The notes under the pieces were generated by a model, which was not told the origin of the DNA, did not search any database, and saw only the letters and a program-made list of their open reading frames with translations. From an uncultured Acidobacteriota bacterium (lineage in GTDB: Bacteria; Acidobacteriota; UBA6911): a DNA stretch of 64,000 bases. Made by a program: the position numbers and the translations under genes. The DNA lies in the NCBI GenBank assembly GCA_963843575.1, contig CAWJKZ010000018.1:32001-96000 (forward strand), given 5' to 3'. Positions 3,232 through 27,443 of this stretch are shown here, piece by piece (position 1 is the stretch's first letter; every line of letters starts with the position of its first letter).

Positions 3232-3244
3232 CCCAGCCCCCGGC

Positions 3245-4456: not shown

Positions 4457-4605
4457 CCCACCTCCGCAGGAATCTGTTCCGTGGCCTACGCTATCCGACC
4501 GAATCAGCCCGATTTTGTGTCCCCCCTCCCCATCTATGCTGCAAAAACCAGCCTATTCCGTACAAGCGACTTCATAACCGATTGCGACTGCGATGCCGAT
4601 TCCGA

Positions 4606-6540: not shown

Positions 6541-6766
6541 GCGCGAGCGAGAGACTCGCTTTGCCTGCTCAGAACAGAGCGACTGCCCGTGCGACCGGTC
6601 GGACGATGGCGAACGCGGGCCTTCGTCTTTGGGCCCAGGACGCGAGATGCTTTTATGCCCGGACTAAGGGCTCGCGCAAGAATAGTTTGGCATTTTGCTC
6701 CGGCTCCCATGCCCGAATGTAGCACTATCAGAAAACTGCAATTGTCCGCTGGGCCTGGGAGCCATC

Positions 6767-6875
6767 GCCCTGCGGGGCGCGGCGGCGGGCGGGCATCTGC
6801 GGCCTTGCCGCTCCTCGACGATGTCCCCACACCGCCTGCGTCGCGGCGCCTTGCACCTGCCCGCCCGGCGCTCGC
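6767..6875 (+). repeat. Intergenic GC-rich dispersed repeat, family B (second copy 58975-59038)
   Basis: GCCCT.CGGGGCGCGGCGGC.G.CGGGCATCTGCGGC.TTGCCGCTCCTCGACGATGTC.CCAC is shared between the two sites. Confidence 0.75.
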
Positions 6876-6945
6876 GCCAAAATGCCAACCTATTCCTGCG
6901 CGAACCCTAAGGGTTTCCGCCGGGCCGGAGCCCGGGACAAGGGGC

Positions 6946-7950: not shown

Positions 7951-9191
7951 GTGGTAATCCGGAGTTGCCGGGCCGCGGCAACGGGACGGCCACGAGGATA
8001 GCGGAACTGGCCCCTCTGCCCGTTCGCAATGGGAGCTTGTCGGAAGACCGCAATCGGGAAACTCCGCAGCGCTGCCTGAACATCTGCATGGTATCGGACG
8101 ATTTCCTGCCGGCCGCGACGGGCTGTGGCGTGGTGGTCCAGTGGGCAGCCAGGGAACTGGTCAAGAGGGGCCACAGCGTCAGCGTGGTCACCAGCCGCCG
8201 AAGGGGCCAACCCGGTCTGGAAACGTGGCACGGGATCCGCGTCCACCGGACCTTCTCGATCAGGTTGTACGGCTACTACCAGGCCCTGCCCAGCCAGTCC
8301 GCCCTCCGGCGGATCCTGAACGAGAACGACTTTGACATCATCCATTACCACTATCTCTTCGTCCTGCTGATGCGCATGCGCGCCGCCGCCGCCTCGATGC
8401 GGGCCAGGCATGTCTACACCTACCACATGACCGTAGATCTGTTGACGCAGCCGTGGCTGATGAAGCCCTTCCGTCGGGTCATCTTCAGGCGGCACGTGGA
8501 ATACTGCAACCGGTTCGATTTGATCCTGGCGCCGTCTGCACACCTGGTGGAACAGATACGGGAGTACGGGATCACGGCCCGGACCGAGTACCTCAGCAAT
8601 CCCATCGTGTTCGACAGCCGGGCGGAACAGCAGCGGTCGCCCGAGGATGGTCCCTTCGTGGTGCTCTTCGTCGGACGTCTTTCGCCGGAGAAGAACCTGC
8701 CTTATCTCATCAGGGCTTTCGCGGGGTTGGTGCGGCAACAGCCTTGCTCGGAGCTGAGGATCGTCGGCGAGGGTAGAGAGAAGCCCAGGCTTATGAGGTT
8801 GGCCTCCAAGCTTGGCCTGGAGAGGCAGGTGAAGTTCCTGGGTTTTGTCGAGAACTCCTTGCTGGTGCCGCACTACGCTGCCGCAGACGCTTTTGTCCTG
8901 CCATCGCTTTCGGAGACGCAGGGTCTGGTTGCGCTGGAAGCCATGTGGTTCGCGAAGCCGGTGATCGTCACCAATCGCATCGTGGCTGCCCGCGAGCTGG
9001 TGGAGGATGGGCGGAACGGGTTCATAGTTGACTCGGACTCCGTGGAGGACCTCACCGGGAAGCTGGCCCTGCTCAGCCGCAATCCCGGACTCGCCCGAGA
9101 GCTGGGTCAGGGGGGCCAGAGGCTTGCGGGGCGCTATTCACCGGAACAGATAATCAGCCGGCTGGAGCGGCACTACCTGGATCTGATGTGA
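7947..9191 (+). CDS. Glycosyltransferase family 4
   Basis: SDDFLP..TG, YTYH, FVGRLSPEKN, ETQGLVALEAM (EX7E). ATGA coupling to the deacetylase stop. Confidence 0.93.
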   Translation: MSGNPELPGRGNGTATRIAELAPLPVRNGSLSEDRNRETPQRCLNICMVSDDFLPAATGCGVVVQWAARELVKRGHSVSVVTSRRRGQPGLETWHGIRVHRTFSIRLYGYYQALPSQSALRRILNENDFDIIHYHYLFVLLMRMRAAAASMRARHVYTYHMTVDLLTQPWLMKPFRRVIFRRHVEYCNRFDLILAPSAHLVEQIREYGITARTEYLSNPIVFDSRAEQQRSPEDGPFVVLFVGRLSPEKNLPYLIRAFAGLVRQQPCSELRIVGEGREKPRLMRLASKLGLERQVKFLGFVENSLLVPHYAAADAFVLPSLSETQGLVALEAMWFAKPVIVTNRIVAARELVEDGRNGFIVDSDSVEDLTGKLALLSRNPGLARELGQGGQRLAGRYSPEQIISRLERHYLDLM

Positions 9192-10761: not shown

Positions 10762-11795
10762 TCAGAGCCATCCGGCCTGGCGATACCATTGGGCCGTTTC
10801 GCGCAGGCGTTCGGCCAACGTGGCCGCGGGGGACCAACCCAACTGCGTGCGGGCCTTGGCGGATGAGCACGTCCACGACCCGGCCAGGGCTTCGGCCATC
10901 TTGTCGCTGTTCACCCAACCGGGACGTTGCCGCATGCGCGCCCAGCGAGTCGCCGCAAAGCCCGACCAGTCGCATGAGCGGTCCCGGGCATGTGCACCAC
11001 CGTGGCCCGCTTCTTTCCCAATGCCTGTGGCCATGGCCTGTCCCAGTTCGGCATACGTCGGATCGTGCCCCGGCCGCCATGAAGTAGACACCTTGGCCCG
11101 GCGCTCCGTCGGGGTGCAGACGCTCGCCTTTCTCGGCGGCCAGGAGCAGGAGTGCGACCAGGTCGGCCACGTGGATCAGCGAGAACGCGTCGTTCCTCCC
11201 GGCCGGGCACGACATGGAGCCCCGAGCGGGCGATCGGCCGGAACATTTCAAGCACGCCCCGGTCGCCGGGGCCGAAGACGATCGGCGGACGCACGATGGT
11301 GATCTCCATTTCTCCGGCATGCCTGGCCGCGGCCAGTTCGCCCGCCAGCTTGCTGCGACCGTAGGCGGAAACAGGTGCGGGCGAATCGCCTTCCACGCGA
11401 GGTTGGTCGCCGGCGCAAGGCCCCGCCGCGGCCAGCGAGGAAACCACGATCAACACCGGCCGCTCGGCGCGGTCCGCACAGGCAGCCGCGACGGATTCGA
11501 CGCCGCCCGCGTTCACGCGTGCGAAATCGGCCGTCCGCACCGCCTTCACCAGGCCCGCCAGGTGGAACACCACGCCGGCCTGCGACTCCGCCAGCGCCCG
11601 TTCAATGCCGGCGCGATCGGTCGCATCGCCCACGATGAGTTGGGCGCCTGATGATCGTAGTTCGTCGATGCGCGACGTGGCCCGCACCAGGCACGACACC
11701 CGGTCGCCACGCTCGATCAGCCGGCGCACCAGGTGCTGTCCGATAAAGCCGCTGGCCCCAGTGACCAGCACGGATTCTGCTTCCCTGGTTTTCAT
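10762..11795 (-). pseudogene. NAD-dependent epimerase/dehydratase (extended SDR; candidate 3-keto-ceramide reductase), about five frameshifts in the 3' third
   Basis: VLVTGASGFIG, FHLAG, VSSLAA, YGRSK, RPPIVFGPGD. The remainder (FSLIHVADL, SSAKARTQLGW, WYRQAGWL) is split over three frames between about 10940 and 11200. Confidence 0.85.
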
Positions 11796-12034
11796 CGTCG
11801 TACCCTCCGCCGGGCGGCAACGATCACCAACCATAATTCTTGTCGGGATTATACGCGGTTCTCCAGTAAGAACCAACCCTCGCGGCCGGGCGGCGCCGGC
11901 CCAACGATTGAAAAGGCTTCTGCAAAATGGGTCAGGACTGGCGGTTTTCATCACTCAAATTGGGCTTGCAGTACTACGCGGACGAGAGATAATCAAGGAG
12001 AGATGCTCCACGATGATCGTGAGGTGACAGTCCT

Positions 12035-13202
12035 ATGGAAAATCCCGTCTCAAACGGAACGCTCATGGCCGGCATCGAGATCGTTGTTGTGGAAGGAGGT
12101 TCGGAACTAAAGGACTTCATCGACCTCCCCTGGAATCTCTATGCCGAGTACCCCAGATGGGTTCCTCCCCTCAAGAAGGAGGTTCGCCGGCTGCTGGATC
12201 CCCGCCGGCACCCTTTCTGGTCGTCTGCCGAGCGCCGGCTCTTTCTGGCCCGGCGCGGTTCGCAGGCGGTGGGCAGGATCGCGGGCATCATCGATCGTCG
12301 CTATAATGAGTTCCACGACGAACAGATGGGCATTTGGGGATTCTTCGAATGCGCTGACGATCCGGCGGCGGCAGCGGCCCTCTTTTCCGCCGTGGAGACG
12401 TGGGCTCGCCGGAAGGGCATGGCCTTCGTCAGGGGGCCGCTCAACCCGTCCACCAATTACGAGGTCGGGCTGCTCGTCGAGGGCTTCGATTATCCGCCGG
12501 CGTTGATGATGGCTTACAACCCGCCGTACTACTCCAGATTGGTCGAATCGTGCGGTTTCGCCAAAGAGAAGGACTTGGTCGCCTTCCTGATCGATGGCGA
12601 TTACCGGCTTCCCGAGTGGATGGACAGTCTGGCTGGACGGATAGCCCGAAAAAAAGGCATCCACATCCGGCCCTTTCGTCCCAAGGATGAGGACGCCGAG
12701 TTTGCCCGGATCAAGGAGATCTACAATGACTCCTGGTCCGCTAACTGGGGTTTCGTCCCCCTGAGCGATGAGGAGATGCGGGACATTCAGAAGAGCGTGA
12801 TGACCTTCGCGGATCCCGACCTGGCTTTCTTCATCTATTACGAGGACGAACCGGCGGCGGTCTGCGTAATCTTCCCCGACATCAACCCATTGCTCAAGCG
12901 TCTCAACGGGCGGATCGGCCTGCTGGGTTTGCTGAAGGCGCTCCTCTATCGCCGGGAGATCACCGGATTGCGATGTTTGATGTTCGGGATCAAGGACAAG
13001 TACCGGCAATTGGGAATCCCCATGTTGGCCTTCCACCACATCTTTGAGGTTGTGCAGGCAAAAGGACAAATACCGTTCTCTGGAGTTGGGCTGGACCCTG
13101 GAGGACAATGAGGCCGTCAACACCTTGGCCGTGGAAGCGGGCGCAAGACCATACAAGAGATATCGCATATTCAGAAAATCTTTGTCATTCCGCGTCGCGT
13201 AA
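12035..13202 (+). CDS. GNAT N-acyltransferase, YghO / bacterial ceramide synthase (bCerS) family, one frameshift near 13060
   Basis: FIDLPW..Y..WVPPL, GRIAG, WGFFE, RGPLNPSTNYEVGLLVEGF, YNPPYY, NWGFVP, PDIN. The conserved tail ELGWTLEDN...YKRYRIF continues in another frame to TAA 13200-13202. Alternative start at 12065. Confidence 0.85.
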
Positions 13203-13231: not shown

Positions 13232-16200
13232 ATGTTGGCTGAGGAGCAGGTTCCCATCATTGCTTTTGTCTGGAGACCTGGCGAGATAAGCCCGCCTGTG
13301 TCCGAAATGGCACAACGCACGGGCAGCCGGGCCATCTTCGATTTTTCCACGATGGGGGCGGAAGCACTGCATTCGTTCTTACAAACGGCTGACCCTGCTG
13401 GCCATGTCAGCGATATCAAGATTTCCGCCTCCGCCCTGATGAATCCATCCATCGGCCGGATCCTGAAGGAAACAGGTGCCCGGAATCTCTGGGTGGAATG
13501 CCAGTCCCAGTTCTTCCCGGGGGATCCTTCGGCCTTTCTACAGCGACTGCGGACCTTGTCGGAAGACTACCGCTGCTTTCCCATTGTCGGGGACGTGCCT
13601 CTCCTGGCCGCCATGGTCAAGGATGGTTCGGGCATCGGGCGCATCGTCCTCAAGGGCTGCGAGGCCGCTGGATTCGTGAGCGGCGAGACGACCTTGGTCC
13701 TCTATGCGGCGGCCAAGGAAATGTTGCGCGCCTCTGCGAAGTCTCTGGACGTCCTCATCTGGGGCGGCGTCTCCACCCCCGAGGCGGCCGCGGCCTTCCT
13801 GTCCACCGGAGCCGCCGGTATCGTCTTCGAGAGCGTCCACTGGCTGACTGATCTGGTGGTCATGGACGATCGCCAACGCCAGCAACTCGCCAGACTCCGC
13901 ATGGATTCCACTGCTCTGGTGGGCTTGGACCTGCAGGTTCCGTGTCGCCTTTTCAACAAAGGGAACTCGCTGGCCTTCAAGAAGATCCAGGCGTTCGAGG
14001 ACTCGCTGTGCGCCGCCGAGATCACGGACGAAAGCCGTCGTGCCTTCGTCGGCCAGGTGCAGGCCAGCGCCCTCCACCCCCTGGACAGCCATTTCACCCA
14101 GAGCGAGGTCATCCCTCTGGGCGTGGAGGCGGCCTTTGCCGCGTCGTTTGCCGAGCGTTTTGGCACCGGAACCGAGAAGGCCGTGAAAGCCTTCATGGCG
14201 GAGATGCGGAACTTGTGCGGCGCAGCCGAGGCGAAGAAGGATTGCTTCCTGGACAGCCCCGTAGCCCGGGAGATGGGCATCAAATACCCCTTTATCCAGG
14301 GTGCCATGTCCTCGATCACCGATATCCCGGAGTTTGCCTCCGAGATTGCTGATGCCGGCGGACTGCCCACCATCGCCCTCGGCCTGATGGATGCCCAGGC
14401 CCGTGACCGCAGGCTGGGACGCTTGCCGGAGATCATGGGCGGACGCCCGTATGCGGTGAATGTCGTCTCTCTGGCCGAGAACCCGTTCCGGGAAACGCAT
14501 CTGGCCTGGATAAAACAACACCGACCCCGTTTTGTCTGGATCGCCGGAGGAGATCTCTCCCCCATAAGAGAATTGCTGCAATGCGGCATTGGCGTCGTGT
14601 ATATCGCCCCTGATGAGGCCCTGTTGAAGCTCGCCCTGGAAGCGGGCGTCCGCTACGTGGTCTGCGAGGGCTACGAGGCCGGCGGCCACGTGGGGCAACA
14701 TAGCACGCTCACCCTGGCGCAAATGGTGCTGGACCTCAAACGTCGCCAGCCATCCCTGTTCCGGGACTGTCGGGTGATCCTGGCCGGGGGCATCTTCAAT
14801 CGGGAAACCGCCTTCATGGCCGGCCTGCTCGGCGCCGACGCCATCCAGATGGGCACGGCCTATCTGGCCACCCGGGAGATCGTTGAAACGGGCGCCCTGG
14901 CGGCCCTCTATCAGCGGATGATCGTGGAATCGCCGCCGGGGGGAACGGTCGTTTCGGGCCAAAGCACCGGACTTCGCGTGCGCTCCTTGAGGACCCCGAG
15001 AGTGGCCGCCGTCTTAGCTCTGGAACGGGAGTTTGCCGCGGGCCACCAGGACGAGCAGTCTTTCCGCAAGAAAATGGAGGAGATGACCGCCGGCAGCCTC
15101 TTCGTCGCGGCCCGAGGCGTGGACCGCCAAAGCGGGCGGCCGCTGGATGAGCAGGCGTGTCTGGAACGCGGGCAATTCATGAGCGGGTCCTGCGCCGGAC
15201 TGATCGGTAAAGTCCAGAAGCTGGAGTCCTTTCACCGCGAGTTGGCCGAAGGCCCGCTCTTGCTCCATCAGCCCTTTGCGACGTCGACCGCAAAAACCTC
15301 GGCACCTTCACCCGACGCGCCGCTACCCGCGGAAATCCCCACTCCCGTGGTTGGCCGGGGACCGAAGGGCGTCGCCCGCCTGAGAGACGATCGCGACCGG
15401 GTGGCCATCAGCGGGATGAGCGTCCTCAATGCCCTCGGGAAGAGCCCGGAAGAGGTCTGGGCGGCAAGCCTGGCCATGAAGAGCGGCGTTACCTTGGTGC
15501 CGTCTTCCCGGTGGAATCACGACCGCTTTTATGATCCGCGGCCGCGCGTCACGGACAAGACCTACTGCCAGGTGGGCGCCTTTGTGGACTTTCATGTCTC
15601 ACGCAATGAACTGGGGATTCCCCCACAGGATTTCCGGACCATGACCTCGGCCACCAGGATCACCATGTGGCTGGCGCAAAGGGCCATTCGGGCCTCCGGC
15701 ATCCTGGAGTCAGGTATCCCGCGCGAGCGCATCGCGGTCCTCATCTCCCAGAACTCCGGAGAGGCGGCGGGCACCCTCACCGGTATGATCATCAGGGAGT
15801 ACGTGCACGAAATCCTCTCCGCCATCAAGCGGGCCGTTCCCCTCACCCCGGATCAGGAGAGCGCCATCGAACGGGAGGTGAAGTCCGGACGCATGGCCCC
15901 GGACGACACCACGCTTCTGGGCCGACTCAACTGCACCGCCGCCGGCTTCATCTGCAACCGCTATGGCTTCATGGGGCCCAGCTATTCGGTCTCCGCCGCC
16001 TGCGCCACCTCCCTGGTCGCGCTCTACAGCGCCCTGCAGATGATCCGCAACGGCATCATCGACGCCGCCATCGTCGGCGGAGGCGAGGATGATCTCACGC
16101 ATCTGCATTTCCTGGAATTCTCCGCCCTGGGCGCGCTTTACGGGTTGTCGGGACGGCCGCGGCCGCCTCACGAAACCTCTCGCCCCTTCGATGCTGAAAG

Positions 16201-18112
16201 AGACGGGATGGTCCTCGGCGAAGGCGGGGGCATGATCGTCATCGAGCGCGAGAGCCTGGCCCGCGACAGAGGGGCCCCGGTCCATGCGGTCATCACCGGC
16301 ATGGGCGCAAGCAACAACCATCTGGGCATGGTCGAGTCCTCCAGCGTCACCCAGGAAATCGCCATCCGCGCTTCTTTCCGCGGAATGCCCTATGGGCCCG
16401 ACGCCGTGGACCTGGTGGAATGCCATGCCACAAGTACTCGCCAAGGGGACGTGGAGGAGGTCCGTGCCCTGAAGACATTCTTCAATTCCTCCAAGCGCAC
16501 AGTGCTCACGTCATTCAAATCCCAGATCGGACACACACTGGGCGCCTCTGGCATTAACAACCTCATTCGAGGAGTCATGGCCATGAAGGCGGGGGTTTTC
16601 CCCCCCACCCTCAACTACACGCACCCTGATCCGGAAATCGACTCGAACGGATCGGGTCTCCTCATCGCCCCAGAGCCGCTCGATTGGAAGTGCGAGACCG
16701 GCCGGCCAAGAAGGTTTCAGGTCAACGCCTTCGGGTTTGGAGGTTCCAACTACGTGGTTCAGGTGGAGCAGGCCCTGGATGGTGAGGATACGATTCTGGT
16801 CTCCACGGGCAGAGAGGCGCGTCTCGCCGCGGAGACGGCCGATGACCCTGCCGTGCTCCAGGGCGTCTCTTTCTTCCGGACCGAGATGGCCGGCCGCACC
16901 TGCCGGATGGCCGTTGTCGCACCATCTGCCGAAGAGGCCCTCACGGTCATCGAGCGCTCCGCCTCCCTGGCCGAAGCCGCGGTCGCCTCACCCAAGGCGG
17001 CGCGTTCCCTGGCGCAGCAGGGCCTCTTCATCAGCCCCGAGGATCCGCCCGTGCCGCCGCTCGCTCTGGTCTTTCCCGGACAGGGGGCCCACTATGCCGG
17101 CATGGGCCAGGCGCTCTACGAGTCCTTTCCCGTCATCAAGGAGTGGATGGATCGGGCGGCCGCCGCCGCCACGGACTTCGACCTTCTGCAATTGTTATTC
17201 CATGATCGAGAGGAGAACCTGCAGAAGACCCGCTGGCAGCAACCGGCCCTGTTCGCCCTGGAGCACGCCATGGCTCGATACCTCATCACTCTTGGTATCC
17301 ACCCTGTGGCTATGGCCGGCCACAGTTTGGGCGAACTGACCGCCCTATGCCTGGCCGGTGTCTATTCCCTGGAGGACGGGTTTCGAATCGTGAACAAGAG
17401 GGCCCTCTGCATGGACAAGGCCGCTGCTATGCACGTGGACCCCGGCGTCATGGAGGCCACGGACGCCCCTCTGGATCTGCTGAAAGAGATGATCCGGGGA
17501 CGGAAGGATGTCCACATTGGCAATATCAATTCACCGAACCAGGTCGTCCTGAGTGGCGACACCGAGGCGGTCAAAAATCTTGGTAACAGACTGAAGGAGA
17601 AGGGATACCGGTCCACCCTCCTGCGGGTCAGCATGGCCTTCCACTCTCCTATCATGAGGCTTATCCATGATGAGCTCGAGGCGTACGTTGCCTCCATCCC
17701 ATTTCATTCCCCGCAGATCCCCGTCATCTCCAACACAACCATGGCACCGTACCCATCAGATCCCGGTGAGATCAGGCGCATCCTGATGGCCCACCTGGAA
17801 TCTACCGTCCATTGGATGAATAATGTCCAGACTCTCTGGAATGACTACGGCATCCGGCTCTTCGTGGAGGTGGGTCCCGGCGACATATTGAGCAATCTCA
17901 TCGCCGACACGCTCCCTGAACCGCTGTGCCTCCAGACCTGCCTGCCCACCGCGGAGAGCCACACGTACCGGACCGCCCTGGCGCAGCTCTTCGTTCACGG
18001 ACATCTACAGGTTCGGGAAGAACCGCGGTTCGTCTCCCTCCCGGCATCCCGGAAGGCTCCCGCGTCTCACCGCCACGCCCCAGCCGGAGAACAGTCCTCC
18101 CCGCCCCCTTGA
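13232..18112 (+). CDS. Type I PKS/FAS, N-terminal part: degenerate FabK/NPD domain, FabK/PfaD-like enoyl reductase, KS, AT
   Basis: ER: YPFIQGAM, EGYEAGGHVG, LAGGI, IQMGTAYL. KS triad: SAACATS, ECHATST, KSQIGHT. AT: FPGQG, GHSLGE, MAFHS (malonyl-type). Confidence 0.93.
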   Translation: MLAEEQVPIIAFVWRPGEISPPVSEMAQRTGSRAIFDFSTMGAEALHSFLQTADPAGHVSDIKISASALMNPSIGRILKETGARNLWVECQSQFFPGDPSAFLQRLRTLSEDYRCFPIVGDVPLLAAMVKDGSGIGRIVLKGCEAAGFVSGETTLVLYAAAKEMLRASAKSLDVLIWGGVSTPEAAAAFLSTGAAGIVFESVHWLTDLVVMDDRQRQQLARLRMDSTALVGLDLQVPCRLFNKGNSLAFKKIQAFEDSLCAAEITDESRRAFVGQVQASALHPLDSHFTQSEVIPLGVEAAFAASFAERFGTGTEKAVKAFMAEMRNLCGAAEAKKDCFLDSPVAREMGIKYPFIQGAMSSITDIPEFASEIADAGGLPTIALGLMDAQARDRRLGRLPEIMGGRPYAVNVVSLAENPFRETHLAWIKQHRPRFVWIAGGDLSPIRELLQCGIGVVYIAPDEALLKLALEAGVRYVVCEGYEAGGHVGQHSTLTLAQMVLDLKRRQPSLFRDCRVILAGGIFNRETAFMAGLLGADAIQMGTAYLATREIVETGALAALYQRMIVESPPGGTVVSGQSTGLRVRSLRTPRVAAVLALEREFAAGHQDEQSFRKKMEEMTAGSLFVAARGVDRQSGRPLDEQACLERGQFMSGSCAGLIGKVQKLESFHRELAEGPLLLHQPFATSTAKTSAPSPDAPLPAEIPTPVVGRGPKGVARLRDDRDRVAISGMSVLNALGKSPEEVWAASLAMKSGVTLVPSSRWNHDRFYDPRPRVTDKTYCQVGAFVDFHVSRNELGIPPQDFRTMTSATRITMWLAQRAIRASGILESGIPRERIAVLISQNSGEAAGTLTGMIIREYVHEILSAIKRAVPLTPDQESAIEREVKSGRMAPDDTTLLGRLNCTAAGFICNRYGFMGPSYSVSAACATSLVALYSALQMIRNGIIDAAIVGGGEDDLTHLHFLEFSALGALYGLSGRPRPPHETSRPFDAERDGMVLGEGGGMIVIERESLARDRGAPVHAVITGMGASNNHLGMVESSSVTQEIAIRASFRGMPYGPDAVDLVECHATSTRQGDVEEVRALKTFFNSSKRTVLTSFKSQIGHTLGASGINNLIRGVMAMKAGVFPPTLNYTHPDPEIDSNGSGLLIAPEPLDWKCETGRPRRFQVNAFGFGGSNYVVQVEQALDGEDTILVSTGREARLAAETADDPAVLQGVSFFRTEMAGRTCRMAVVAPSAEEALTVIERSASLAEAAVASPKAARSLAQQGLFISPEDPPVPPLALVFPGQGAHYAGMGQALYESFPVIKEWMDRAAAAATDFDLLQLLFHDREENLQKTRWQQPALFALEHAMARYLITLGIHPVAMAGHSLGELTALCLAGVYSLEDGFRIVNKRALCMDKAAAMHVDPGVMEATDAPLDLLKEMIRGRKDVHIGNINSPNQVVLSGDTEAVKNLGNRLKEKGYRSTLLRVSMAFHSPIMRLIHDELEAYVASIPFHSPQIPVISNTTMAPYPSDPGEIRRILMAHLESTVHWMNNVQTLWNDYGIRLFVEVGPGDILSNLIADTLPEPLCLQTCLPTAESHTYRTALAQLFVHGHLQVREEPRFVSLPASRKAPASHRHAPAGEQSSPPP

Positions 18113-18206
18113 TCGCCCCCCGACCACCCCGGACGGACAGGCCGCCCCGGCCCTTGCCGAAGCGCCTGAGCGTCAGGACCACCTGGAGGCGATTATTCGC
18201 ATCATC

Positions 18207-20936
18207 ATGGATGCCACCGGATTCGACCGGGACGAAATCCAACCCGATATGGATCTCAGAAGAAACCTCTCCATCCGCTCCAGCCGTCTGCCGATCATCA
18301 TGGATGCCGCGGAACGCCAGTTCGGGATCACTATCGAATTGGAGGACTTTATCCATGTCCGCACCGTAAGAGACATCGCCCAGCGGATCTCCGCGATCGT
18401 CGCCCGGCAGGAAGGCGCCGGCGAGCGGCCCGCCGCCAAGGCGGCTGACCCCGGCGCGGCGCCGGCCGGAATCCCTGAGCCGTCAGCGGATGAGGCGCTT
18501 CTGAAGCGGCTCGTTTTCAACCTCGCCCCTGTGGAGCCGGCAGCTTCCATGCCCGTGGAATTGAGCCCCGGCGAGGCCGTCCTCCTCCTCTCGCCGGACC
18601 AGGATGACGCACTGGCCAAGAGTGCGGGAGACCTGCTCCGCCAGGATTACGGTGTTGACACTTTTCCCCTGCCATTCATGCCAGAGCACTTGGGGCCGGG
18701 CGAAGAGGGCCACGACATTCTGAATGCCGCGGGAGTCGCCAGGACCTCAGAGAAAATCTCGGGCCTCGCCTCCCTCGCGGGGCTGGTCATCACCTTGCCT
18801 CAAGACGGGTCGGAACGGTTGGCCGGCATGGCGGATGTTTCGCGGCTGCTCACCGGGCTCTTTCAACTCCTGAAGGCTTTTCTCCAATCACCATCCAGGA
18901 AATTCGTCGTCCTGATTCATGCCCGCGAGGATACCGACACTCTCGGTCGGCTGCTGACGGAGGGGCTGCTCGGACTGTTTCTGAGCGCCGCCCAGGAACA
19001 CCCCGCGGTCCAGTTTCGCACGCTGGAAATCGACCGGGACACCGACCTGCCCCTGGCCCTGCGCGCCGCTCTGGACAAGGGCTGCGCCGCGGTGGAACTC
19101 ATTCATCGCGAAGGCAAGGTCTTCACCTCGCAGGGACACCTGGCCCCCGCGGTCTTCGGCGATCCGCCAAGTCTGAAGTTGAACCCCGGAGACGTTGTAG
19201 TCATGTCTGGAGGCGCCACGGGGATCAGCGCCCACCTGGCCCGCAGTTTGGTGCCCTTCGCGCCTCGCCTGGTCTTTCTTGGCAGGACCCAGCTGGAACC
19301 GCACCCCGAGCCTTCGTCTTCTGCATCTGCCCCTGACAAATCCCGAGCCCGCGAGATCGCCCAGACCCTGGCGGATTTGCACGCCTCAGGAATCGAGGCC
19401 ACGTACCTGACCTGCGATGTAACCGACCCCGAGGCGGTTCGTGTTGCCCTGGGCGAGGTGGCCGGCCGCTATGGCCGGATCGACGGCATCATTCACGGCG
19501 CCGGCGTCCTCCGGGACGGTTTCCTCGACCAAATGACCCCTGAGGATTTTTCCCTCGTCGCGGACGTCAAATTCCTGGGAGCCTGGAATCTATTCTCGGC
19601 GGCAGAGGGGGCGGGCTTGAGGTTCTTCGTGGGCCTTTCCTCGGTGGCGGCCATCCAGGGAAATCCCGGCCAGACCAACTACGCTGCCGCCAACCGCATG
19701 ATGTCGGCGCTACTCCGATACCTCCGCCGCAGGAACGGCGCCATCCGCTTCAAGGCGTTGATGCTGCCCCCGGTCGAGGGGACGGGCATGGCCGAGAACC
19801 CGGAGGTCCGGGACTTGCTCAGACGCCGAGGCGTGGCCTACGTCCACGTCCATGAGCTTGCCGGCCTGTTCTGCCGGGAACTCTTCGTCGCCCCGGCCGA
19901 CGACGATTGGGTCATGTTCATCAGGACCCTGCCCTCCGTGAAGACGGCACCGCTCGGTGATATCAGCCACCCCGCGCTCAGTGGACAACTGGATGGCGGC
20001 CCCGTGGCCTTCAGCCCTCGCGACTTCCCCATGATCGATGGCATCTCTTGCCTGGACCTCCGCCGGGAACACTTGGAGGCCTCCAGGTCCTTCTCCAGGC
20101 AGAACGATCTGTGGATCGCGGATCACCGGCCACTCAAGTCCCTCGCCCATCCTCTGGTTTCCGCCGCCATGATGCTCGAGACCTTCATGGAATCCGCCCG
20201 CATCCTCTATCCCCACCTCCAGGTGCGGGGCGTGCGCCAGGTGCGTTTCATGGACATGATCTCCTGTCCTCCTGAGGTTCCCCGGTCTTCCAGAATCTCC
20301 TGCCGCCGAGCCGGCGTCGACCCTCGTGAGGTAGTATGCGAGGCCTCTCTATCCGTACAAGAGATCTCCCCCACGGGCCGGCTGGCCGACCGCTTCATCC
20401 CACACTGCACGGGCCAGGTGCTCCTCGGCGGCGGGCGTGGAGAACTCGCCGAGTGGTTCCAGGATTTTCCTGTCCGTCCGGATGAGCTGCGGACTCCGCC
20501 CGTGAATCATGAAAAAGTGCTCAAATGGTACGAAGAACGAACCGGACTCAACGGCAGATATCGCGTGCTGGAGGTCATTGACGGTGCCGGTCCGGGGCTG
20601 ATACGGGGCCGAACCATTTACCGGGAGACCGGTGATTTCGCGCATCTGCACGCCGCGCGCTACCAATACTCTCCCTACCTGTTCGAGGCCCTGATGCAGT
20701 TGGCCGCCTTCCACATGCTGGCCATAGACCCACACGATCGCCGCTCGATGCTCCCCACAGAGATCGGCGAGATGCGGTTTCTGCGCCAATGCCGGCCGGG
20801 CGAACAGATAACCCTGGAGGCCCGCCTGCGGGTTCAGGACCACGAATCTCTCGCCTGGGACGCCCGGGGACTTGACGATCAAGGCCTCACTATAATGCAG
20901 ATTCGTACGATGCGCATGCACTGGGTTTCGCCGTGA
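18207..20936 (+). CDS. Type I PKS/FAS, C-terminal part: ACP, KR, double-hotdog DH. Probably one gene with 13232-18112, split by a frameshift near 18100
   Basis: ACP DLRRNLSIRSS with its first helix (HLEAIIRII) upstream of the ORF start in the same open frame. KR: GGATGI, HGAGVLRD, GNPGQTNYAAAN. DH: WIADHRP...LFEALMQ. Confidence 0.9.
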   Translation: MDATGFDRDEIQPDMDLRRNLSIRSSRLPIIMDAAERQFGITIELEDFIHVRTVRDIAQRISAIVARQEGAGERPAAKAADPGAAPAGIPEPSADEALLKRLVFNLAPVEPAASMPVELSPGEAVLLLSPDQDDALAKSAGDLLRQDYGVDTFPLPFMPEHLGPGEEGHDILNAAGVARTSEKISGLASLAGLVITLPQDGSERLAGMADVSRLLTGLFQLLKAFLQSPSRKFVVLIHAREDTDTLGRLLTEGLLGLFLSAAQEHPAVQFRTLEIDRDTDLPLALRAALDKGCAAVELIHREGKVFTSQGHLAPAVFGDPPSLKLNPGDVVVMSGGATGISAHLARSLVPFAPRLVFLGRTQLEPHPEPSSSASAPDKSRAREIAQTLADLHASGIEATYLTCDVTDPEAVRVALGEVAGRYGRIDGIIHGAGVLRDGFLDQMTPEDFSLVADVKFLGAWNLFSAAEGAGLRFFVGLSSVAAIQGNPGQTNYAAANRMMSALLRYLRRRNGAIRFKALMLPPVEGTGMAENPEVRDLLRRRGVAYVHVHELAGLFCRELFVAPADDDWVMFIRTLPSVKTAPLGDISHPALSGQLDGGPVAFSPRDFPMIDGISCLDLRREHLEASRSFSRQNDLWIADHRPLKSLAHPLVSAAMMLETFMESARILYPHLQVRGVRQVRFMDMISCPPEVPRSSRISCRRAGVDPREVVCEASLSVQEISPTGRLADRFIPHCTGQVLLGGGRGELAEWFQDFPVRPDELRTPPVNHEKVLKWYEERTGLNGRYRVLEVIDGAGPGLIRGRTIYRETGDFAHLHAARYQYSPYLFEALMQLAAFHMLAIDPHDRRSMLPTEIGEMRFLRQCRPGEQITLEARLRVQDHESLAWDARGLDDQGLTIMQIRTMRMHWVSP

Positions 20937-21727
20937 CGCGGCTCGAACAAATGGGGGCAGCCGTGGCACAGGATCGCCAGGAAGTCATCGTTCAGTCCGT
21001 GCGTCTCGTTCCTTGCGGGTGCGTTGTCTTCTATGCCTCCGTGCCAGGGAACTCCGCAAGCTCCAGCGGATCCGCGACCATTCGGACGGAAAACCGTCGT
21101 CGGCTCGTCGCCATCCTCTGGGAGCACCTTCGGGCGAAGGGAAGTCCTCTCTGGAAACGCCCCCATTTCTCCAACAGAGTCGCAGTCCCGATTCAGATAG
21201 TCCACGATACGCTGGGTCGGCCTCGTCTCCTGTTGGGAGAACAGCGGGGCCCGGCCATCTCCTTCAGCACGGCGGGCGAAGAAGTCTGGGCCGCCCTCTG
21301 TGACGACGACTCGACTATCGGCATCGATGTGGCCGGAAGCGCCGAATTCCAGGATGGTTACCCCGTGCACCGGGTCTTCCACGTTCAGGAGCTTCACCAG
21401 GCATTGGAGATGGCGGGCGGAGACTTGGCCAAGGCCGCGGCGCTGCTCTGGTCTATCAAGGAAGCCGTCGCCAAGGCCCTTGGGTGCGGCTTTCATCTTG
21501 TGGATCCGCGGGACATCCATGTCTATCCATCGGCAGCAGAGGATAGCGGGCCTGCCTTTTCCGCACGCTTATCAGGGAAAGCTTTGGTGCGTTTCCCCAT
21601 GGCCGACCGCCGGCCTATCACGGTGTGTTCGCTGCCCCACGCCGAGACGTGGCTTTCCGTCGCCGCCTTGAATTGGCCGCGGCCGTCTGTCGCCAATAGT
21701 CCATCGCTCCGGTCTTCGTGCCCTTGA
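20933..21727 (+). CDS. 4'-phosphopantetheinyl transferase (Sfp-type)
   Basis: GRPRL, ISFS, IGIDV, WSIKEAVAKALG. GTGA overlap with the PKS stop. Confidence 0.9.
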   Translation: MTRLEQMGAAVAQDRQEVIVQSVRLVPCGCVVFYASVPGNSASSSGSATIRTENRRRLVAILWEHLRAKGSPLWKRPHFSNRVAVPIQIVHDTLGRPRLLLGEQRGPAISFSTAGEEVWAALCDDDSTIGIDVAGSAEFQDGYPVHRVFHVQELHQALEMAGGDLAKAAALLWSIKEAVAKALGCGFHLVDPRDIHVYPSAAEDSGPAFSARLSGKALVRFPMADRRPITVCSLPHAETWLSVAALNWPRPSVANSPSLRSSCP

Positions 21728-21882: not shown

Positions 21883-21963
21883 CGAGATCGCGCGTCGCCG
21901 CATCATAACAAATCGGGAAATCGCCTGAGGATGTGCCACGAATTTGCCATTCGCGAGGAAACC

Positions 21964-24087
21964 ATGACCAGAAGATGCTGCTTCTTCGTAATGCTTGTTC
22001 CGGTGGTCGCGTGCCTGGCGACGCCGGTCTATTCTCTCCAGAACAGCGCCGGCAAAGTTTATCCCGCGATAACCCTGCCGGGCGAAGCAGGGGGGCCGAA
22101 GAATTACGTAATCCGGATCGGCGATGTCCAGGCCGTCGAGAATCCCGGGTTGGTGATTCTCGCGGACGGCTTGGACTCCGCCGGGAAGGGGAGCGTCGAT
22201 GTAAACGGCAACATCTACGCGATTCCAACGGCGCCCGCCGGCCTTTTGGCCAAGATAGTCATTCCTCTGAGGTCGGACCACCTGCGGTCCGGCCTGAACC
22301 GAATCTCGTATCCGAAAAGCGGGGCTACCTCCTGCGACGTGCTGGACTGCCGGCTCGAGGAGGTCAAGGAATCCTCCGCCCGCGTCGTTGGCCTGAGCTA
22401 TCTTCCGAAAGCTGCGGTGCCTTCGATCGCCGATTTCGACCTTGTCGCCGCCAGCACCGGCGCCGGCAAAAGGCGGGAGAGCGAACTGGTGCCATGGGCG
22501 CGGCGGGGACTGGTCAGATACTACCGCGCGGGAATCGACTTCAACCATCTCGACCGGTTGTTTGAGATGTTCAAGGAGGCGCGCATCAATCTGGCGATGC
22601 TGCAAACGGTGACGCCGGAAGACCTGCAAAGCGCAGAATACAAGAGATACAAGAACTTCATCGACCGCTGTCATGCGGCAGGCATCAAGGTGATGTTCGA
22701 CGGCGGCACGGGCAACGTGCGGCTGAACGCCATCTCCCTGGATAGCGTACTCCTCCATCCGGAGTGGAGAGACTGGATCGCCAAGGACGACCTGGGATTC
22801 CCCCGCTGGCGCACACCCGGCCGGTCTTTCTGGACGGACGTCAAGAACAGCGACTACCGGAAAGAGGTTCTGAAAGCCGCCGAGATTGCTGTGGACTCCG
22901 GGGCGGACGCCTTCTACTACGACTGGGCCATTGGCGGAACCAGCGACCTGATGCGTTTTTTCAACGACGTGCGCGAGATGACCGACCGCAAAGGCAAGAA
23001 CATCCCTATCTACGGCAACTGCAAGGGGAACATCCTCGTCGAGGAGCGCTGCGACTTCACCAAGTCCGAGGGTACAGAGGAAGCAGGCGTCTGGGATGGA
23101 AGGTGGGTGCACAATGTCGCTCAGGCACGCTTTTACTATGCCGCGGGCGAGGGTTGGAAGCCTTACGAGAGCAAGTACGAAGGAGCCGATCCGGGACGTC
23201 CGGATCCCGGCGCGCATGATGTCCGGGACGGCATGAAGCTCGGCTGGAAACGGCCCATCGCCGAAGCCGCGGCGTTCCAGTCCTTCTTTGCTATCGCCGA
23301 GGCGGGCAGAAAACTGCTGCAAGGCTGGATCCAGAAAGACAACGACCTCGCCATGACCGCCTGGGGGGATATTTGCCGGTACAACACGTTTCTTGCGGAT
23401 AATGAGGACCTCTACACCGATGTGCGGACCCTGAGCAACATCGGGTTGGTGGCGCCTCCGGTCATTCCCAGCTTCGAGATGTCGCTGCAGAGAGCGCCGC
23501 TCTACAATGCCCTGGCCGAGCTGAATTTCATGTACGATGTCGTGCTCCTCTCCAGGCTGAACGACAACAGCCTGGCGGGCTACAAAGCGATCGTGATCCC
23601 GGATGTCCCGTGGACGGACGAGAACCAATTGCGTGTGATCGAGAGATACAGACAGGCAGGCGGCCAGGTCCTGACGATCGGAAGCTCTGAGGAACTCCGG
23701 AAGATCGCTTCCGCAACATTGCCCGATTCTCTTTGTCAGGATATTCAGAAACAGCCTGTAAGGGACGATTTCAGACGGGAATTGCTCAAGCTCTCGGGAG
23801 ATCCGCTTGTCACGGTCCAGGGCGCCGGCTTCGTTATAGCGAACCTGGTCAGAAAGCAGGGAACCCAGCGGGTCATTGCGCACTTCGTGAATTATGGCCA
23901 GGCAGCCGACAATGTGAATGTCCGGCTAAACCTGGCGGGAGTCGTTAAGCAGGTTGACCCCAAGAGCATCCGGCTGCTCTCCCCGGACAACGTTCCCCGG
24001 CAGCTCCAAGACGTCTCCGTCCATGAGGCAACGGTGACATTTACCATGCCGAGGATCGATGTATACGACGTCGTGGTCGTTAATTAG
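21964..24087 (+). CDS. Secreted putative glycoside hydrolase (TIM barrel plus GH42-like trimerisation/GATase-like domain)
   Basis: Signal peptide, FIDRCHAAGIKV, GADAFYYDW, YDVV...YKAIVIPD, HFVNY C-terminal beta domain. RBS GAGGA. Confidence 0.65.
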   Translation: MTRRCCFFVMLVPVVACLATPVYSLQNSAGKVYPAITLPGEAGGPKNYVIRIGDVQAVENPGLVILADGLDSAGKGSVDVNGNIYAIPTAPAGLLAKIVIPLRSDHLRSGLNRISYPKSGATSCDVLDCRLEEVKESSARVVGLSYLPKAAVPSIADFDLVAASTGAGKRRESELVPWARRGLVRYYRAGIDFNHLDRLFEMFKEARINLAMLQTVTPEDLQSAEYKRYKNFIDRCHAAGIKVMFDGGTGNVRLNAISLDSVLLHPEWRDWIAKDDLGFPRWRTPGRSFWTDVKNSDYRKEVLKAAEIAVDSGADAFYYDWAIGGTSDLMRFFNDVREMTDRKGKNIPIYGNCKGNILVEERCDFTKSEGTEEAGVWDGRWVHNVAQARFYYAAGEGWKPYESKYEGADPGRPDPGAHDVRDGMKLGWKRPIAEAAAFQSFFAIAEAGRKLLQGWIQKDNDLAMTAWGDICRYNTFLADNEDLYTDVRTLSNIGLVAPPVIPSFEMSLQRAPLYNALAELNFMYDVVLLSRLNDNSLAGYKAIVIPDVPWTDENQLRVIERYRQAGGQVLTIGSSEELRKIASATLPDSLCQDIQKQPVRDDFRRELLKLSGDPLVTVQGAGFVIANLVRKQGTQRVIAHFVNYGQAADNVNVRLNLAGVVKQVDPKSIRLLSPDNVPRQLQDVSVHEATVTFTMPRIDVYDVVVVN

Positions 24088-25499: not shown

Positions 25500-27443
25500 T
25501 CATTCGTGCTTCGTGCCGGGATACCAGCCGCGCTCCCAGGGAAAAGCGAAGGTGGGGCGGAGCGCATAGCGGGTCATCCTGAACTGGAGCCGGGCACCGG
25601 CGCCCGGCTCCAGGCGCACGGCAAGCACGGGGCCGCTCAATGGCGTTGTGTTGCCGTCTACGGTTACTCCGTCGAACCGGTGTTCGCCGTAACCGCCGGC
25701 CTGAACGACCACCTCGCGAGGCTCGATCGCATTCAGGTTCACCAGCACGACGACAGCCGAATCGGCGCCGAGTTTTTCCACCAGCGCGCCGACATCCTCG
25801 GGAAGTCCGGCACGCCGCCTCACGGGATCGAAGTAGCGGAACCTGCTGTGCAGAACCCAGATGCGGCCGCGTGAGAAATACCCGCCGAGGGCCAGGTTCG
25901 TCAGCCCGTCGGTGGTCGCCGGATTCAGGTCCAGGAGATAGTCGGCCAGCCGAGAATCCGCCGTGGTCTCATCGGTCCGGATCATCTCCATCTTGTGCCG
26001 CACCCGCCCGAGATCGGCCCGGAGCGCCTTTTCCGGAAAATCGGGCAGCATGCCTTCCAGGAAGCCGAGCCACGCGGCGGTGCGGTCGGCTTCGGCATAG
26101 CCCTCATCGGAGGGCGGCGGCGCGTCGAAGCGGTCCACCACGGGCACCCGTTCGAGGTCCCGGCGGTCCATGGACCAGAGATAGATCTCCGCCAGGCGAT
26201 CCGTGTGCAGCTGGTCGGTGTAGTGATACCAGGCCGGAGCGCCGTTGTGCCCGTAGCCTCGCGGATCGCCGTACATCTGGGGGAGCAGCGTCTTGCCGTT
26301 ATCCACTTTCCTGTGCGCGTAAATGTTGTCCATCTGGCGGCGCAGGACTTGGACGTACGACTGGTCGCCGCTCAACAGCAGGGCGTTGCTGAACCCCGGC
26401 CAGGGCCCGGCGGTGAAATAGTTGCGGTGCGCGATCTGGCCGAGTTCTCCGTCAAATATGGTGAAGTTCCACCCGTAGGTGCCTTTCCACCACTGCCCGT
26501 GGTGTTCGCCTCCGGGGTTCCCGTCGAGTCCCACATCGCTCGGTATGTTGCCCGCCGTCTGCTCCGTGCGCTCCTTCCATGCACCCACGTAGTCGAGCAC
26601 CCAGCTGCGATATTTCATGTCTCCGGTGAGCATGAACGCGTTCAGCCCGAGTATGGTTGCCGCCAGATTGAGCGAATTGTCGCCGACGCTGTCGAGATAC
26701 TCGGCGCAGTGCGCCAGCATCTTTTCGTAATGCGCCTGGAGGTCGAGCATGCGGCCGCGGCCGGCGGGATTGTGCAGGAGATGGAAGGTGCCGGGAACCG
26801 GGTCGCCCACCCAATCGTACGTGGTTGCCCTGCGCAGCATCGGCCCCTTGCTGCCGTTCCAGAGGCTCTTGATGACCTTGCGTTCTGGGTCGTAGTTGGG
26901 TGCCTCCGGGTCCTCGCCCATGTACATGGCGGCGAAGCGCACGATGCGCGCGCGGTAGAGTTCGTCGTCGGGATCCGACAGGCCGAGCAGCAGGAAGGCG
27001 CGCATGCCTTCGCCCGTGTGAAACCAGTCGGACTGGGTGATGAACTCGCGGAGGTATGCGCCGTTGGCTGCCAACTCGGTCAGTTTCGTGCGGAGCTCGC
27101 CGTACTGTTTCCAGTGCCCTTCCTGCGCTTTCTTGTATAGCTGGAGAACCGCGTCGGATCCGCCTAGGGCGTGGAGCAGGGTCCAGTTCCAGAAGGTCTC
27201 GATGGCGTCGTCGGGGCCGTCAAGCGTGCCCCAACGCGGGGTATGAAGCAGGTATCCCCGCTCGTCGACGTACTTCGCGGCGAAGCGCTCGACTGCCGCG
27301 GAGTTGTAGCGCAGCAGTTCGCGCTCCAGCAGCGCCCACGCGGGAGCCTCCATCGGCGTTGCGATCCGGACCGTTGCTTCCGGCCCCTGCGGCCGCGCCA
27401 GGCCCAGCGCGAACATGAGACTGAGGGCAGGTAGGGCTTTCAT
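25500..27443 (-). CDS. Secreted conserved hypothetical protein (647 aa)
   Basis: Long high-GC3 ORF with signal peptide and Trp/Asp/Gly-rich motifs (RWGTLDGPDDAIE, DWFHTGEG, WWKGTYGWNF). No family assigned. Confidence 0.8.
   Translation of the reverse strand: MKALPALSLMFALGLARPQGPEATVRIATPMEAPAWALLERELLRYNSAAVERFAAKYVDERGYLLHTPRWGTLDGPDDAIETFWNWTLLHALGGSDAVLQLYKKAQEGHWKQYGELRTKLTELAANGAYLREFITQSDWFHTGEGMRAFLLLGLSDPDDELYRARIVRFAAMYMGEDPEAPNYDPERKVIKSLWNGSKGPMLRRATTYDWVGDPVPGTFHLLHNPAGRGRMLDLQAHYEKMLAHCAEYLDSVGDNSLNLAATILGLNAFMLTGDMKYRSWVLDYVGAWKERTEQTAGNIPSDVGLDGNPGGEHHGQWWKGTYGWNFTIFDGELGQIAHRNYFTAGPWPGFSNALLLSGDQSYVQVLRRQMDNIYAHRKVDNGKTLLPQMYGDPRGYGHNGAPAWYHYTDQLHTDRLAEIYLWSMDRRDLERVPVVDRFDAPPPSDEGYAEADRTAAWLGFLEGMLPDFPEKALRADLGRVRHKMEMIRTDETTADSRLADYLLDLNPATTDGLTNLALGGYFSRGRIWVLHSRFRYFDPVRRRAGLPEDVGALVEKLGADSAVVVLVNLNAIEPREVVVQAGGYGEHRFDGVTVDGNTTPLSGPVLAVRLEPGAGARLQFRMTRYALRPTFAFPWERGWYPGTKHE

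Follow-up and report, generated by a model that had tools for sequence, protein, structure and literature searches.

A PfaD-PfaA-type megasynthase with tandem dead and live enoyl reductase barrels in a probable ceramide-type gene cluster of an uncultured Acidobacteriota bacterium

We analysed a 64,000-nucleotide stretch of DNA from an uncultured Acidobacteriota bacterium of the UBA6911 lineage (GenBank assembly GCA_963843575.1, contig CAWJKZ010000018.1, positions 32,001 to 96,000 of the forward strand; hereafter the window, from whose first letter all positions are counted), and in particular a megasynthase encoded at 13232–20936. Its domains lie in the order pseudo-enoyl reductase (ER′), enoyl reductase (ER), ketosynthase (KS), acyltransferase (AT), acyl carrier protein (ACP), ketoreductase (KR) and dehydratase (DH). 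Judged from its sequence, this protein of ~2,570 aa, the product of one gene, is a PfaD-PfaA-type fusion that stands without PfaB or PfaC. We propose that it probably acts on its own as an iterative synthase of fully reduced fatty-acyl chains and is part of a bacterial ceramide-type gene cluster. This sphingolipid-type cluster is the main functional clue, and it had been missed by a preliminary description of the same DNA.

The domain order given in that preliminary description was borne out by a Pfam scan and by the motifs in the translations. In the window, the megasynthase is encoded by two open reading frames (ORFs) on the + strand, ORF 1 at 13232–18112 (1626 aa, frame 2) and ORF 2 at 18207–20936 (909 aa, frame 0), a split that is discussed below. 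ORF 1 matched NMO in two stretches (best at residues 444–616), the KS N and C domains (722–1129) and AT (1280–1565), and ORF 2 matched a 5′-truncated PP-binding domain (2–61), KR (331–509) and PS-DH (810–906). The KS (residues 722–1129; 15395–16618, + strand; Pfam ketoacyl-synt N and C), a Cys/His/His enzyme, reads AACATS, ECHATST and IGHT, and the AT (residues 1280–1565; 17069–17926, + strand), which is malonyl-type by motif and reads GHSLGE and MAFHS, matched Acyl_transf_1 at 4.9e-44 and TIGR00128 FabD at 211 bits. The KR (18744–19853, + strand; Pfam KR at 8.4e-37, NF045894 at 182–549) comprises structural and catalytic halves with the LRD motif and the catalytic Tyr (VLRD and NYAAAN), and the DH (20004–20936, + strand; PS-DH at 810–906) is a polyketide synthase (PKS)-type double hotdog with its His in IADH. 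Furthermore, TIGR02813 PfaA matched the megasynthase at 336.6 bits over 723–1563. The PfaA-like order KS-AT-(ACP)n-KR-DH is thus present with one ACP, a single PP-binding domain having been found by Pfam in place of the tandem ACPs of the polyunsaturated fatty acid (PUFA) synthases. No thioesterase (TE), chain length factor (CLF) or terminal reductase domain was found by the Pfam scan in either ORF, as had been stated before.

A word-index search with the megasynthase gave 807 matches. Among the 119 other proteins listed (76–96% identity), 108 are 2498–2759 aa long, and hence full-length, at 76–93% identity and carry NMO, KS, AT, (PP), KR and PS-DH domains. Relatives are encoded in 176 stretches of species-representative genomes, so the family is abundant, and the best 80 of these 176 stretches are the loci to which all locus counts refer. 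The carriers belong to the Planctomycetota, the Verrucomicrobiota, the Lentisphaerae, many orders of the Thermodesulfobacteriota, the Thermodesulfovibrionales/Nitrospiraceae, the Aminicenantales and the Terriglobia (Acidobacteriota). Within the class of the window's genome, 2 of 137 genomes carry an orthologue, and in the family of the window's genome the other 50 genomes all lack one. The labels 'SDR family oxidoreductase' and 'malonyl CoA-ACP transacylase', attached to relatives of ~2,500 aa, mask what appears to be a lipid megasynthase.

The catalytic residues are strongly conserved in this family. In an alignment of 71 rows (48 orthologues from the loci and 23 divergent representatives; MAFFT, fast setting), the KS Cys, the second KS His, the AT Ser and His, the ACP Ser, the KR Tyr, the LRD Asp, the DH His and the ER His are each invariant (71/71). 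For the first KS His, the reading comes from the window sequence alone, since its motif string is missing from the reference row of the alignment. The full KS triad claimed earlier can be read in the window, and for the Cys and the second His it extends to the whole family. The malonyl-type AT, the one ACP, the KR with LRD and the C-terminal double hotdog likewise agree with the Pfam matches, the motifs and the invariant residues. A PfaB/PfaC partner, that is, a KS-CLF or a FabA-like DH/isomerase (DH/I), was found neither among the window neighbours nor among the recurrent families of the 80 loci. The conserved catalytic residues, the complete KR/DH/ER set and the absence of a PfaC-type KS-CLF or FabA-like DH nearby lend computational support to the idea of a self-contained iterative synthase of the fatty acid synthase type.

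The single ACP (18171–18389, + strand; frame-0 translation and Pfam PP-binding) has its helix 1 upstream of the ATG at 18207. We observed that its serine (18270–18290) lies in an unusual setting, L-(S/A)-I-R-S-S where one would expect L-G-I-D-S, the window reading L-S-I-R-S-S. The motif is kept in the orthologues and in most of the divergent members shown, and the distant member P0254 retains LGIDS. The Arg that replaces the Asp at this attachment site may account for the requirement for a private phosphopantetheinyl transferase (PPTase).

The N-terminus consists of two FabK-like barrels, as had been proposed. An AlphaFold2 (AF2) model of residues 1–710 (37 sequences; pLDDT 68.3, pTM 0.72) shows two beta/alpha barrels, and for ER′ eight beta/alpha units were predicted within residues 9–199 (pLDDT ~80–90). 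ER (residues 341–684; 14252–15283, + strand) has the features of an intact FabK-type enoyl reductase with the motifs EAGGH, IQGAM, AGGI and QMGT, the last three of which we take to function in the binding of flavin mononucleotide (FMN). In the model, ER (337–684) superposes on Thermotoga FabK 5gvh with Z 25.7, an rmsd of 3.3 and 29% identity over 295 aligned residues (VIA-align). The fit to S. pneumoniae FabK 2z6i was as good (Z 25.7) and that to PfaD 6lkc was poorer (Z 21.9), and TIGR03151 FabK matched ER at 347–667. ER′ (residues 1–338; 13232–14245, + strand), on the other hand, had no Pfam match even at E≤10 and reached only E 0.15 against ER by BLASTP; the fold search with the two-domain model was taken up by matches to ER (spanning 221–683). 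By hhalign, however, ER′ and ER aligned with 97.9% probability and E 2e-12 over 300 columns, with EAsGF opposite EAGGH (59 rows). Their homology was thus seen by profile-profile comparison only.

The first barrel had been described as lacking the His of EAGGH and the second as intact, and the window indeed reads CEAAGF in barrel 1 and YEAGGH in barrel 2. In a set of 62 sequences reaching down to 27% identity, the catalytic His of ER (His486) is present in all 62, whereas at the corresponding ER′ position 148 His occurs in none (F in 50, Y in 5, W in 2, L in 2, and V, I and P once each; Phe148 in the window). ER′ also lacks the IQGAM (QGxM) and QMGT (MGT) motifs and keeps a FESxHW signature of its own across the 62 sequences. 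It is because of the missing His that we class it as a pseudo-enzyme and not as an ER. A search with ER′ against 1.84 billion representatives gave only 260 proteins at E≤1e-3; among the 150 matches listed, 38 are proteins of 2336–2860 aa that carry ER′ N-terminally, and the others are mostly short fragments. Two distant members that were scanned have the same domain order as the window megasynthase. By these sequence comparisons, ER′ is an old, conserved and catalytically dead duplicate of ER that is almost confined to this megasynthase superfamily.

Could the dead barrel serve as the partner of the live one? When ER (341–690) and ER′ (1–338) were folded as two chains, the pair scored 0.94 in all three runs, compared with 0.00 for the best of three controls; of the solved complexes, 58 of 80 attain this pairing mark, and so do 2 of 110 mismatched pairs. 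At least 93% of the contacts are shared between the runs, and the partner pLDDT is at least 88. In the predicted interface, ER 480–534 touches ER′ 143–193, and residue 491 touches 153, its own counterpart by the hhalign alignment. Such contact between equivalent elements of both barrels indicates a pseudo-twofold arrangement. Structure prediction of the pair thus agrees with the intramolecular ER′-ER pseudodimer suggested in the preliminary description, and we regard such a pairing as predicted.

The further suggestion that the megasynthase is one polypeptide is not borne out in the window, where the two ORFs lie in different frames as a result of a 1-nt indel. Frame 0 is open from 17892 and encodes ACP helix 1 (HLEAIIRII) 5′ of the first ATG at 18207. 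Compared with locus L076, whose protein is 92% identical, the window carries one additional C in the run at 18099–18102 (+ strand), and DNA alignment with L076, L052 and L034 places the frameshift that splits the megasynthase at this run. Where the N-terminus was found (59 loci), 45 loci have a single ORF of 2529–2747 aa, and 12 of the 14 loci with a shorter ORF bear isolate names of one project (MFD...bin). The base at 18099 is missing in every covering metagenome contig (four runs from four studies, one contig per run). These contigs, placed at ≥88% likeness, represent relatives and not the source sample, the best run having matched 0.34 of the window words, and dips in depth over 17948–18217 in this comparison are uninformative.

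Other genes of the assembly are broken in a similar way. The acyltransferase gene upstream of the megasynthase is frame-broken by a 1-nt insertion at 13056, and a reductase gene at 10765–11954 carries several 1-nt insertions. Outside the window, housekeeping fabF-like and fabD-like genes (G000:C14:716048–718571) have an in-frame TGA and a frame change. Because these genes are frame-broken as well, the two-ORF state is very probably an assembly error. An alternative is that the frameshifts are real, that the cluster is a decaying set of pseudogenes in this genome and that no lipid is made. Three cluster genes are, after all, frame-broken within 10 kb; the cluster is rearranged, with ~9 kb of genes that all 80 loci lack lying between the exporter and sphingolipid-base genes on one side and the PKS on the other; and the gene set seems recently acquired, since no other genome of the same family, including one of the same genus, carries it. 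We nevertheless consider decay improbable, since the breakage of the fabD-like and fabF-like genes points to the assembly, the megasynthase has no further stop and has lost no catalytic residue, and the extra C is absent from all four covering contigs of other samples.

The neighbourhood of the megasynthase is conserved, and its core is a module of a tandem-GNAT acyltransferase, the megasynthase, a PPTase and an ABC-2 exporter. The usual order in relatives is [SDR]-GNAT-[281-aa protein]-PKS-PPTase-[FemAB-like]-ABC-ABC, where SDR stands for short-chain dehydrogenase/reductase. The second half of the PKS was found in 71 of the 80 loci. The most constant neighbour is the GNAT 'U358' (12035–13184, + strand, with the part at 12035–13111 used for the count; ~373 aa in relatives and broken here), which is present in 67 loci at a median identity of 75%. 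An Sfp-type PPTase (20933–21727, + strand; Pfam ACPS), whose start overlaps the megasynthase stop, is present in 55 loci. The ABC-2 pair, a DrrA/NodI-like ATPase cut by the window start and a permease (17–1968, + strand; Pfam/NCBIfam), lies downstream of the PPTase in most relatives, with the ATPase in 53 loci (median identity 79%) and the permease in 49 (73%). An extended SDR of the epimerase/NAD_binding_4 type (10765–11954, − strand; Pfam/NCBIfam; frame-broken), in a CerR-like position, is present in 27 loci at 41% identity. Recurrent families in the 80 loci also include ACP-α-oxoamine synthase (AOS; 26 loci), B12-radical SAM (18), PAP2_3 (16), PLD (13) and sulfatase-type proteins (13), and PAP2, PLD and the sulfatase-type proteins are recurring head-group enzymes. 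Across phyla, the GNAT, PKS and ABC genes keep median identities of 73–79%, as against 41% for the SDR and two types of AOS, which indicates that GNAT, PKS and exporter move as one unit. Two further proteins recur, each in 22 loci: the PPTase and ABC genes flank a FemAB_like protein of 390 aa (L018:18764–19936), and the GNAT and PKS genes flank one of 281 aa that belongs to no Pfam family (L036:9056–9901).

What links this module to sphingolipids? A fusion of FAAL, ACP and AOS (Spt-like; 1148 aa, L089:16473–19919) ends 81 nt before the window, with the ABC pair next to it. It provides the cluster with a pyridoxal phosphate-dependent AOS of the Spt type whose serine specificity is putative. AOS genes are present in 28 of the 80 loci, 14 of which also have a FAAL, and they are of two types (about 35% and 60–94% identity). 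FAAL-ACP-AOS, SDR, GNAT, PKS, PPTase and ABC genes all occur together in the genome of the window and in those most closely related to it (L004, L009, L038, L048, L051, L052, L054 and L076), with the AOS at 82–94% identity. Locus L035 was scored as lacking an AOS, yet an AOS and a PAP2 sit just past the 10-kb flank. In the complete-genome metagenome-assembled genome (MAG) behind L035, this AOS (L106:13817–14767; G137:C1:418861–419970) has one in-frame TGA, which could be an error or a case of recoding or could mark a pseudogene. We rejected a substitution of the PKS for FAAL, since FAAL is present in 14 of the 28 AOS-bearing loci, including this genome.

The GNAT can be placed by structure and by context. 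In a Foldseek search with its AF2 model (pLDDT 70.6), the best match was the tandem GNAT 7q3a (2.6e-8); glucosamine N-acetyltransferase, MshD, Eis, NMT and FemX came next. Within the family, weak matches to Acetyltransf_1 were found in 12 of 32 members and to Acetyltransf_6 in 9 of 32; NCBIfam has no family for it, and an Atlas search gave only generic 'N-acetyltransferase' clusters. The family is present in 45 of the 137 genomes of the window's class. In PKS-less genomes, the GNAT (~40% identity) adjoins an ACP-AOS in 7 of 10 loci (1.5-kb flanks), and both of the 20-kb PKS-less regions that were opened contain the GNAT with FAAL, ACP-AOS and SDR and no other acyltransferase. Because the same family stands beside FAAL, ACP-AOS and SDR in these genomes, the GNAT is a candidate for the ceramide-synthase slot of the canonical bacterial ceramide cluster, and the SDR is, by gene context, a candidate CerR-like reductase. 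Release of the chain by a neighbouring GNAT or an Spt-like enzyme, as suggested in the preliminary description, is supported by the constancy of the GNAT and by the FAAL-ACP-AOS just outside the window.

Members of this acyltransferase family were also met in other settings. At L104:1246–11194 (G049:C3), in another genome of the window's class, a canonical KS-AT-DH-cMT-ER-KR-ACP PKS of 2581 aa adjoins a GNAT of the same family (35% identity), and it represents a second, unrelated type of highly reducing PKS paired with these acyltransferases. Six loci of Desulfuromonadales/Geobacterales-type and some unclassified deltaproteobacterial genomes (L025, L026, L033, L045, L047 and L062; ~5.5–9 kb) hold two GNAT paralogues, with 38–42% identity in the four that were aligned. 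One copy lies by the SDR and ACP-AOS and the other by the PKS, with a PAP2 between them in most.

How might these parts work together? We suggest that the PPTase would arm the single ACP, the AT would load malonyl units, and KS, KR, DH and ER would build an acyl chain that is expected to be saturated because there is no FabA-type DH/I or CLF partner. ER′ and ER would pair in cis and so give the dimer needed by FabK-type reductases. The tandem GNAT would then take the chain straight from the ACP, no TE being present, and N-acylate a long-chain base made by FAAL-ACP-AOS, while the SDR would reduce the 3-keto group and the ABC-2 pair would export the lipid. We prefer this N-acyl destination of the chain, at roughly even confidence, because FAAL and ACP-AOS are self-sufficient without the PKS, because the constant neighbour is the GNAT and not the AOS, and because GNAT, PKS and ABC genes share high cross-phylum identity while the AOS splits into two types.

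The chain might instead become part of the long-chain base. FAAL-ACP would present an acyl starter, the megasynthase would extend it, the AOS would condense the product with serine and release it, and the GNAT would use housekeeping donors. FAAL-ACP loading ahead of a KS is common PKS logic, the AOS brings its own ACP in these clusters, and it is found in 28 of the 80 loci. There is also a precedent in P. fluorescens MYb115, where, according to the available portions of 10.1101/2024.02.06.579051 and PMC12134224, an iterative PKS extends a palmitoyl starter for 3–5 cycles and the AOS SgaB off-loads the chain. We nevertheless judge this route rather unlikely here, since FAAL and ACP-AOS form a complete base-making unit in the PKS-less relatives, so that the PKS is dispensable for it; since the AOS is missing from the examined flanks of 52 loci, compared with a GNAT present in 67; and since the AOS is of two unrelated types, whereas GNAT and PKS co-vary. 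Another explanation is that the module makes an exported acyl-amide lipid that is not a sphingolipid, for instance one in which an amino acid is N-acylated or a head group is acylated, and that it is near ceramide genes in some cases only. Many amines are substrates of tandem GNATs, the core module stands without a flanking AOS or SDR in many loci, in loci of the Thermodesulfovibrionales type their place is taken by a FemAB-like gene, PLD, sulfatase and B12-radical-SAM, and four of five AOS-less genomes gave AOS matches of only 32–40%. We regard it as quite improbable, since the complete set from FAAL-ACP-AOS to ABC is united in the genome of the window and in those most closely related to it, since the supposedly AOS-less L035 has an AOS and a PAP2 just beyond its flank, and since the same GNAT family is the sole acyltransferase of the PKS-less FAAL/ACP-AOS/SDR clusters.

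Several points weigh against a ceramide-type role in which the chain is made by the megasynthase and transferred by the GNAT. Sequence alone cannot separate the N-acyl from the long-chain-base destination. No AOS lies within the examined flanks of 52 of the 80 loci, and of the five AOS-less genomes that were searched whole, one had a close AOS (55%) and the rest had 32–40% matches that may be BioF or Kbl. The assignments of the GNAT as a bacterial ceramide synthase (bCerS) and of the SDR as CerR are those of candidates, made from gene context. The high pairing score of ER′ and ER may reflect their likeness to solved FabK and PfaD homodimers. GNAT, SDR and PKS are all frame-broken, so there is a small probability that the cluster is truly decaying in this strain. 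Finally, all 80 loci are from MAGs, with no cultured carrier among them.

More tentatively, and with some doubt on our part, we suggest that a horizontally mobile four-part module supplies special, perhaps very long amide chains across at least six phyla, with the ABC-2 pair as the flippase and ER′ as an obligatory partner of ER. If true, this would place such sphingolipids in anoxic wetlands, soils and sediments, and in the ABC-2 pair the ceramide flippase that bacteria still lack would have been found. The dead ER′ would then be the ER counterpart of the KS-CLF pair, letting a FabK-type reductase act within a single chain. According to current views, anoxic environments commonly harbour bacterial sphingolipids, and we know of no established source of their unusual chains or route by which they cross the membrane. 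The cluster offers a compact, expressible gene set for a PKS-fed ceramide route and, in the ABC-2 pair, a candidate lipid exporter. ER′ may furthermore be a natural example of a pseudo-enzyme domain that completes the dimer of a FabK-type reductase, as the structure prediction suggests, which would be useful for the understanding and the engineering of megasynthases.

The remaining genes near the module differ from those of the relatives. A block at 2008–9191, between the ABC pair and the SDR, is not present in any of the 80 related loci. It comprises a GT2/Glyco_transf_21-type glycosyltransferase (2008–3231, − strand), a radical SAM-SPASM gene (3245–4456, − strand), a second radical SAM gene (4606–5877, − strand), a PIG-L deacetylase (6529–7950) and a GT4 gene (7803–9191). 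The block could be a lineage-specific set for head-group tailoring that gives a glycosylated ceramide; Pfam GT21, to which the first gene is related, is to our understanding the ceramide glucosyltransferase family. As members of the module, the GT2/GT21, the two radical SAM, PIG-L, GT4 and DctP genes were rejected, since they were found in 0 of the 80 loci apart from one weak GT4 match. On the 3′ side of the PPTase, ORFs at 21931–24087 (718 aa, + strand) and 25500–27443 (647 aa, − strand) have no Pfam family above threshold and were likewise found in none of the 80 loci.

In a literature search of article texts, with supplementary lists such as that of 6,101 Sga-like clusters outside its scope, we found in print no tandem dead/live ER pair, no stand-alone PfaDA-type synthase with one ACP and no such synthase constantly tied to a tandem GNAT and an ABC-2 exporter within ceramide-type clusters. 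The same search gave no relevant paper on ER-KS-AT-, ER-KS-AT-ACP-, ER-KS-MAT- or ER-ER-KS-type architectures, returned only the Sga and myriocin papers on sphingolipid/Spt, PKS and enoyl reductase together, and yielded no characterised product of the ER′-ER-KS-AT-ACP-KR-DH architecture. None of the PfaA–E types A–T of Shulse and Allen matches the ER′-ER megasynthase in the available text of PMC3098273.

The closest known systems by architecture are the PUFA synthases. The megasynthase shares with them a FabK/PfaD-fold ER ahead of a PfaA-like KS-AT-ACP-KR-DH, a private Sfp-type PPTase, the lack of a TE, an iterative action that is predicted in the present case, and a patchy distribution that suggests horizontal transfer. 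It differs in its two tandem ER barrels, the first of which is dead, in its one L-S-I-R-S-S ACP, in an ER that is closer to FabK (Z 25.7) than to PfaD (Z 21.9), and in being partnered by a tandem GNAT, an ABC-2 exporter and sphingolipid genes. Furthermore, there is no PfaB/PfaC nearby, so the megasynthase has no evident route to cis double bonds. The preliminary description held that PUFA synthases have their ER on a separate subunit. This is partly true, but the available part of PMC13291983 describes fused pfaD-pfaA genes in Ottowia, Aquimarina, Flavobacterium and Renibacterium, and in thraustochytrids the ER domains are parts of PfaB and PfaC (PMC13311796, in part). In the same portion of PMC13311796, xEAGGH with its proposed catalytic His is motif III, TIM-barrel ERs act as dimers, and the Schizochytrium ERb-ERc pair is a heterodimer in which one ER needs the other to fold and to bind FMN. 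Both thraustochytrid ERs, as described there, keep the His of xxSGGH and lie on separate subunits, whereas here the two barrels lie in one chain and one of them is without the His and without the FMN-type motifs.

By pathway logic, the nearest systems are the Sga clusters, in which the PKS SgaA and the AOS SgaB of P. fluorescens MYb115 make long-chain sphinganines (PMC12134224, available portion). A private, TE-less iterative type I PKS is coupled to sphingolipid enzymes in PfSgaAB(C), as described in the available text, and a private, TE-less and probably iterative one in the present cluster, and the chain is passed on from the ACP there and, by prediction, here. On the other hand, SgaA has KS, AT, DH, ER, KR, ACP and a cryptic domain and no FabK-type ER in the portion of 10.1101/2024.02.06.579051 available to us, so both domain order and ER type differ. 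Moreover, the constant partner here is the GNAT, the AOS is fused to a FAAL-ACP of its own, and the module includes an exporter. The locus is consequently not a member of the SgaAB-type PKS-sphingolipid clusters, which combine a monomodular KS-AT-DH-ER-KR-ACP PKS with a free-standing AOS; at most it works like them.

The ceramide pathway of Caulobacter crescentus consists of AasR-AcpR-Spt, bCerS/CerS and CerR in the available portions of PMC11087976 and PMC11324152. The activities of AasR, AcpR and Spt (acyl-AMP ligase, ACP and oxoamine synthase), as far as the latter source sets them out, are fused here in one protein of 1148 aa, and an N-acyltransferase, an NAD-type SDR and head-group enzymes are near, a likeness that is one of context and set of activities. 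The present cluster differs in that the megasynthase and its PPTase are added and in that, compared with Caulobacter, for whose ceramide lipids no flippase has been identified (PMC11087976), an ABC-2 exporter is built into the gene set.

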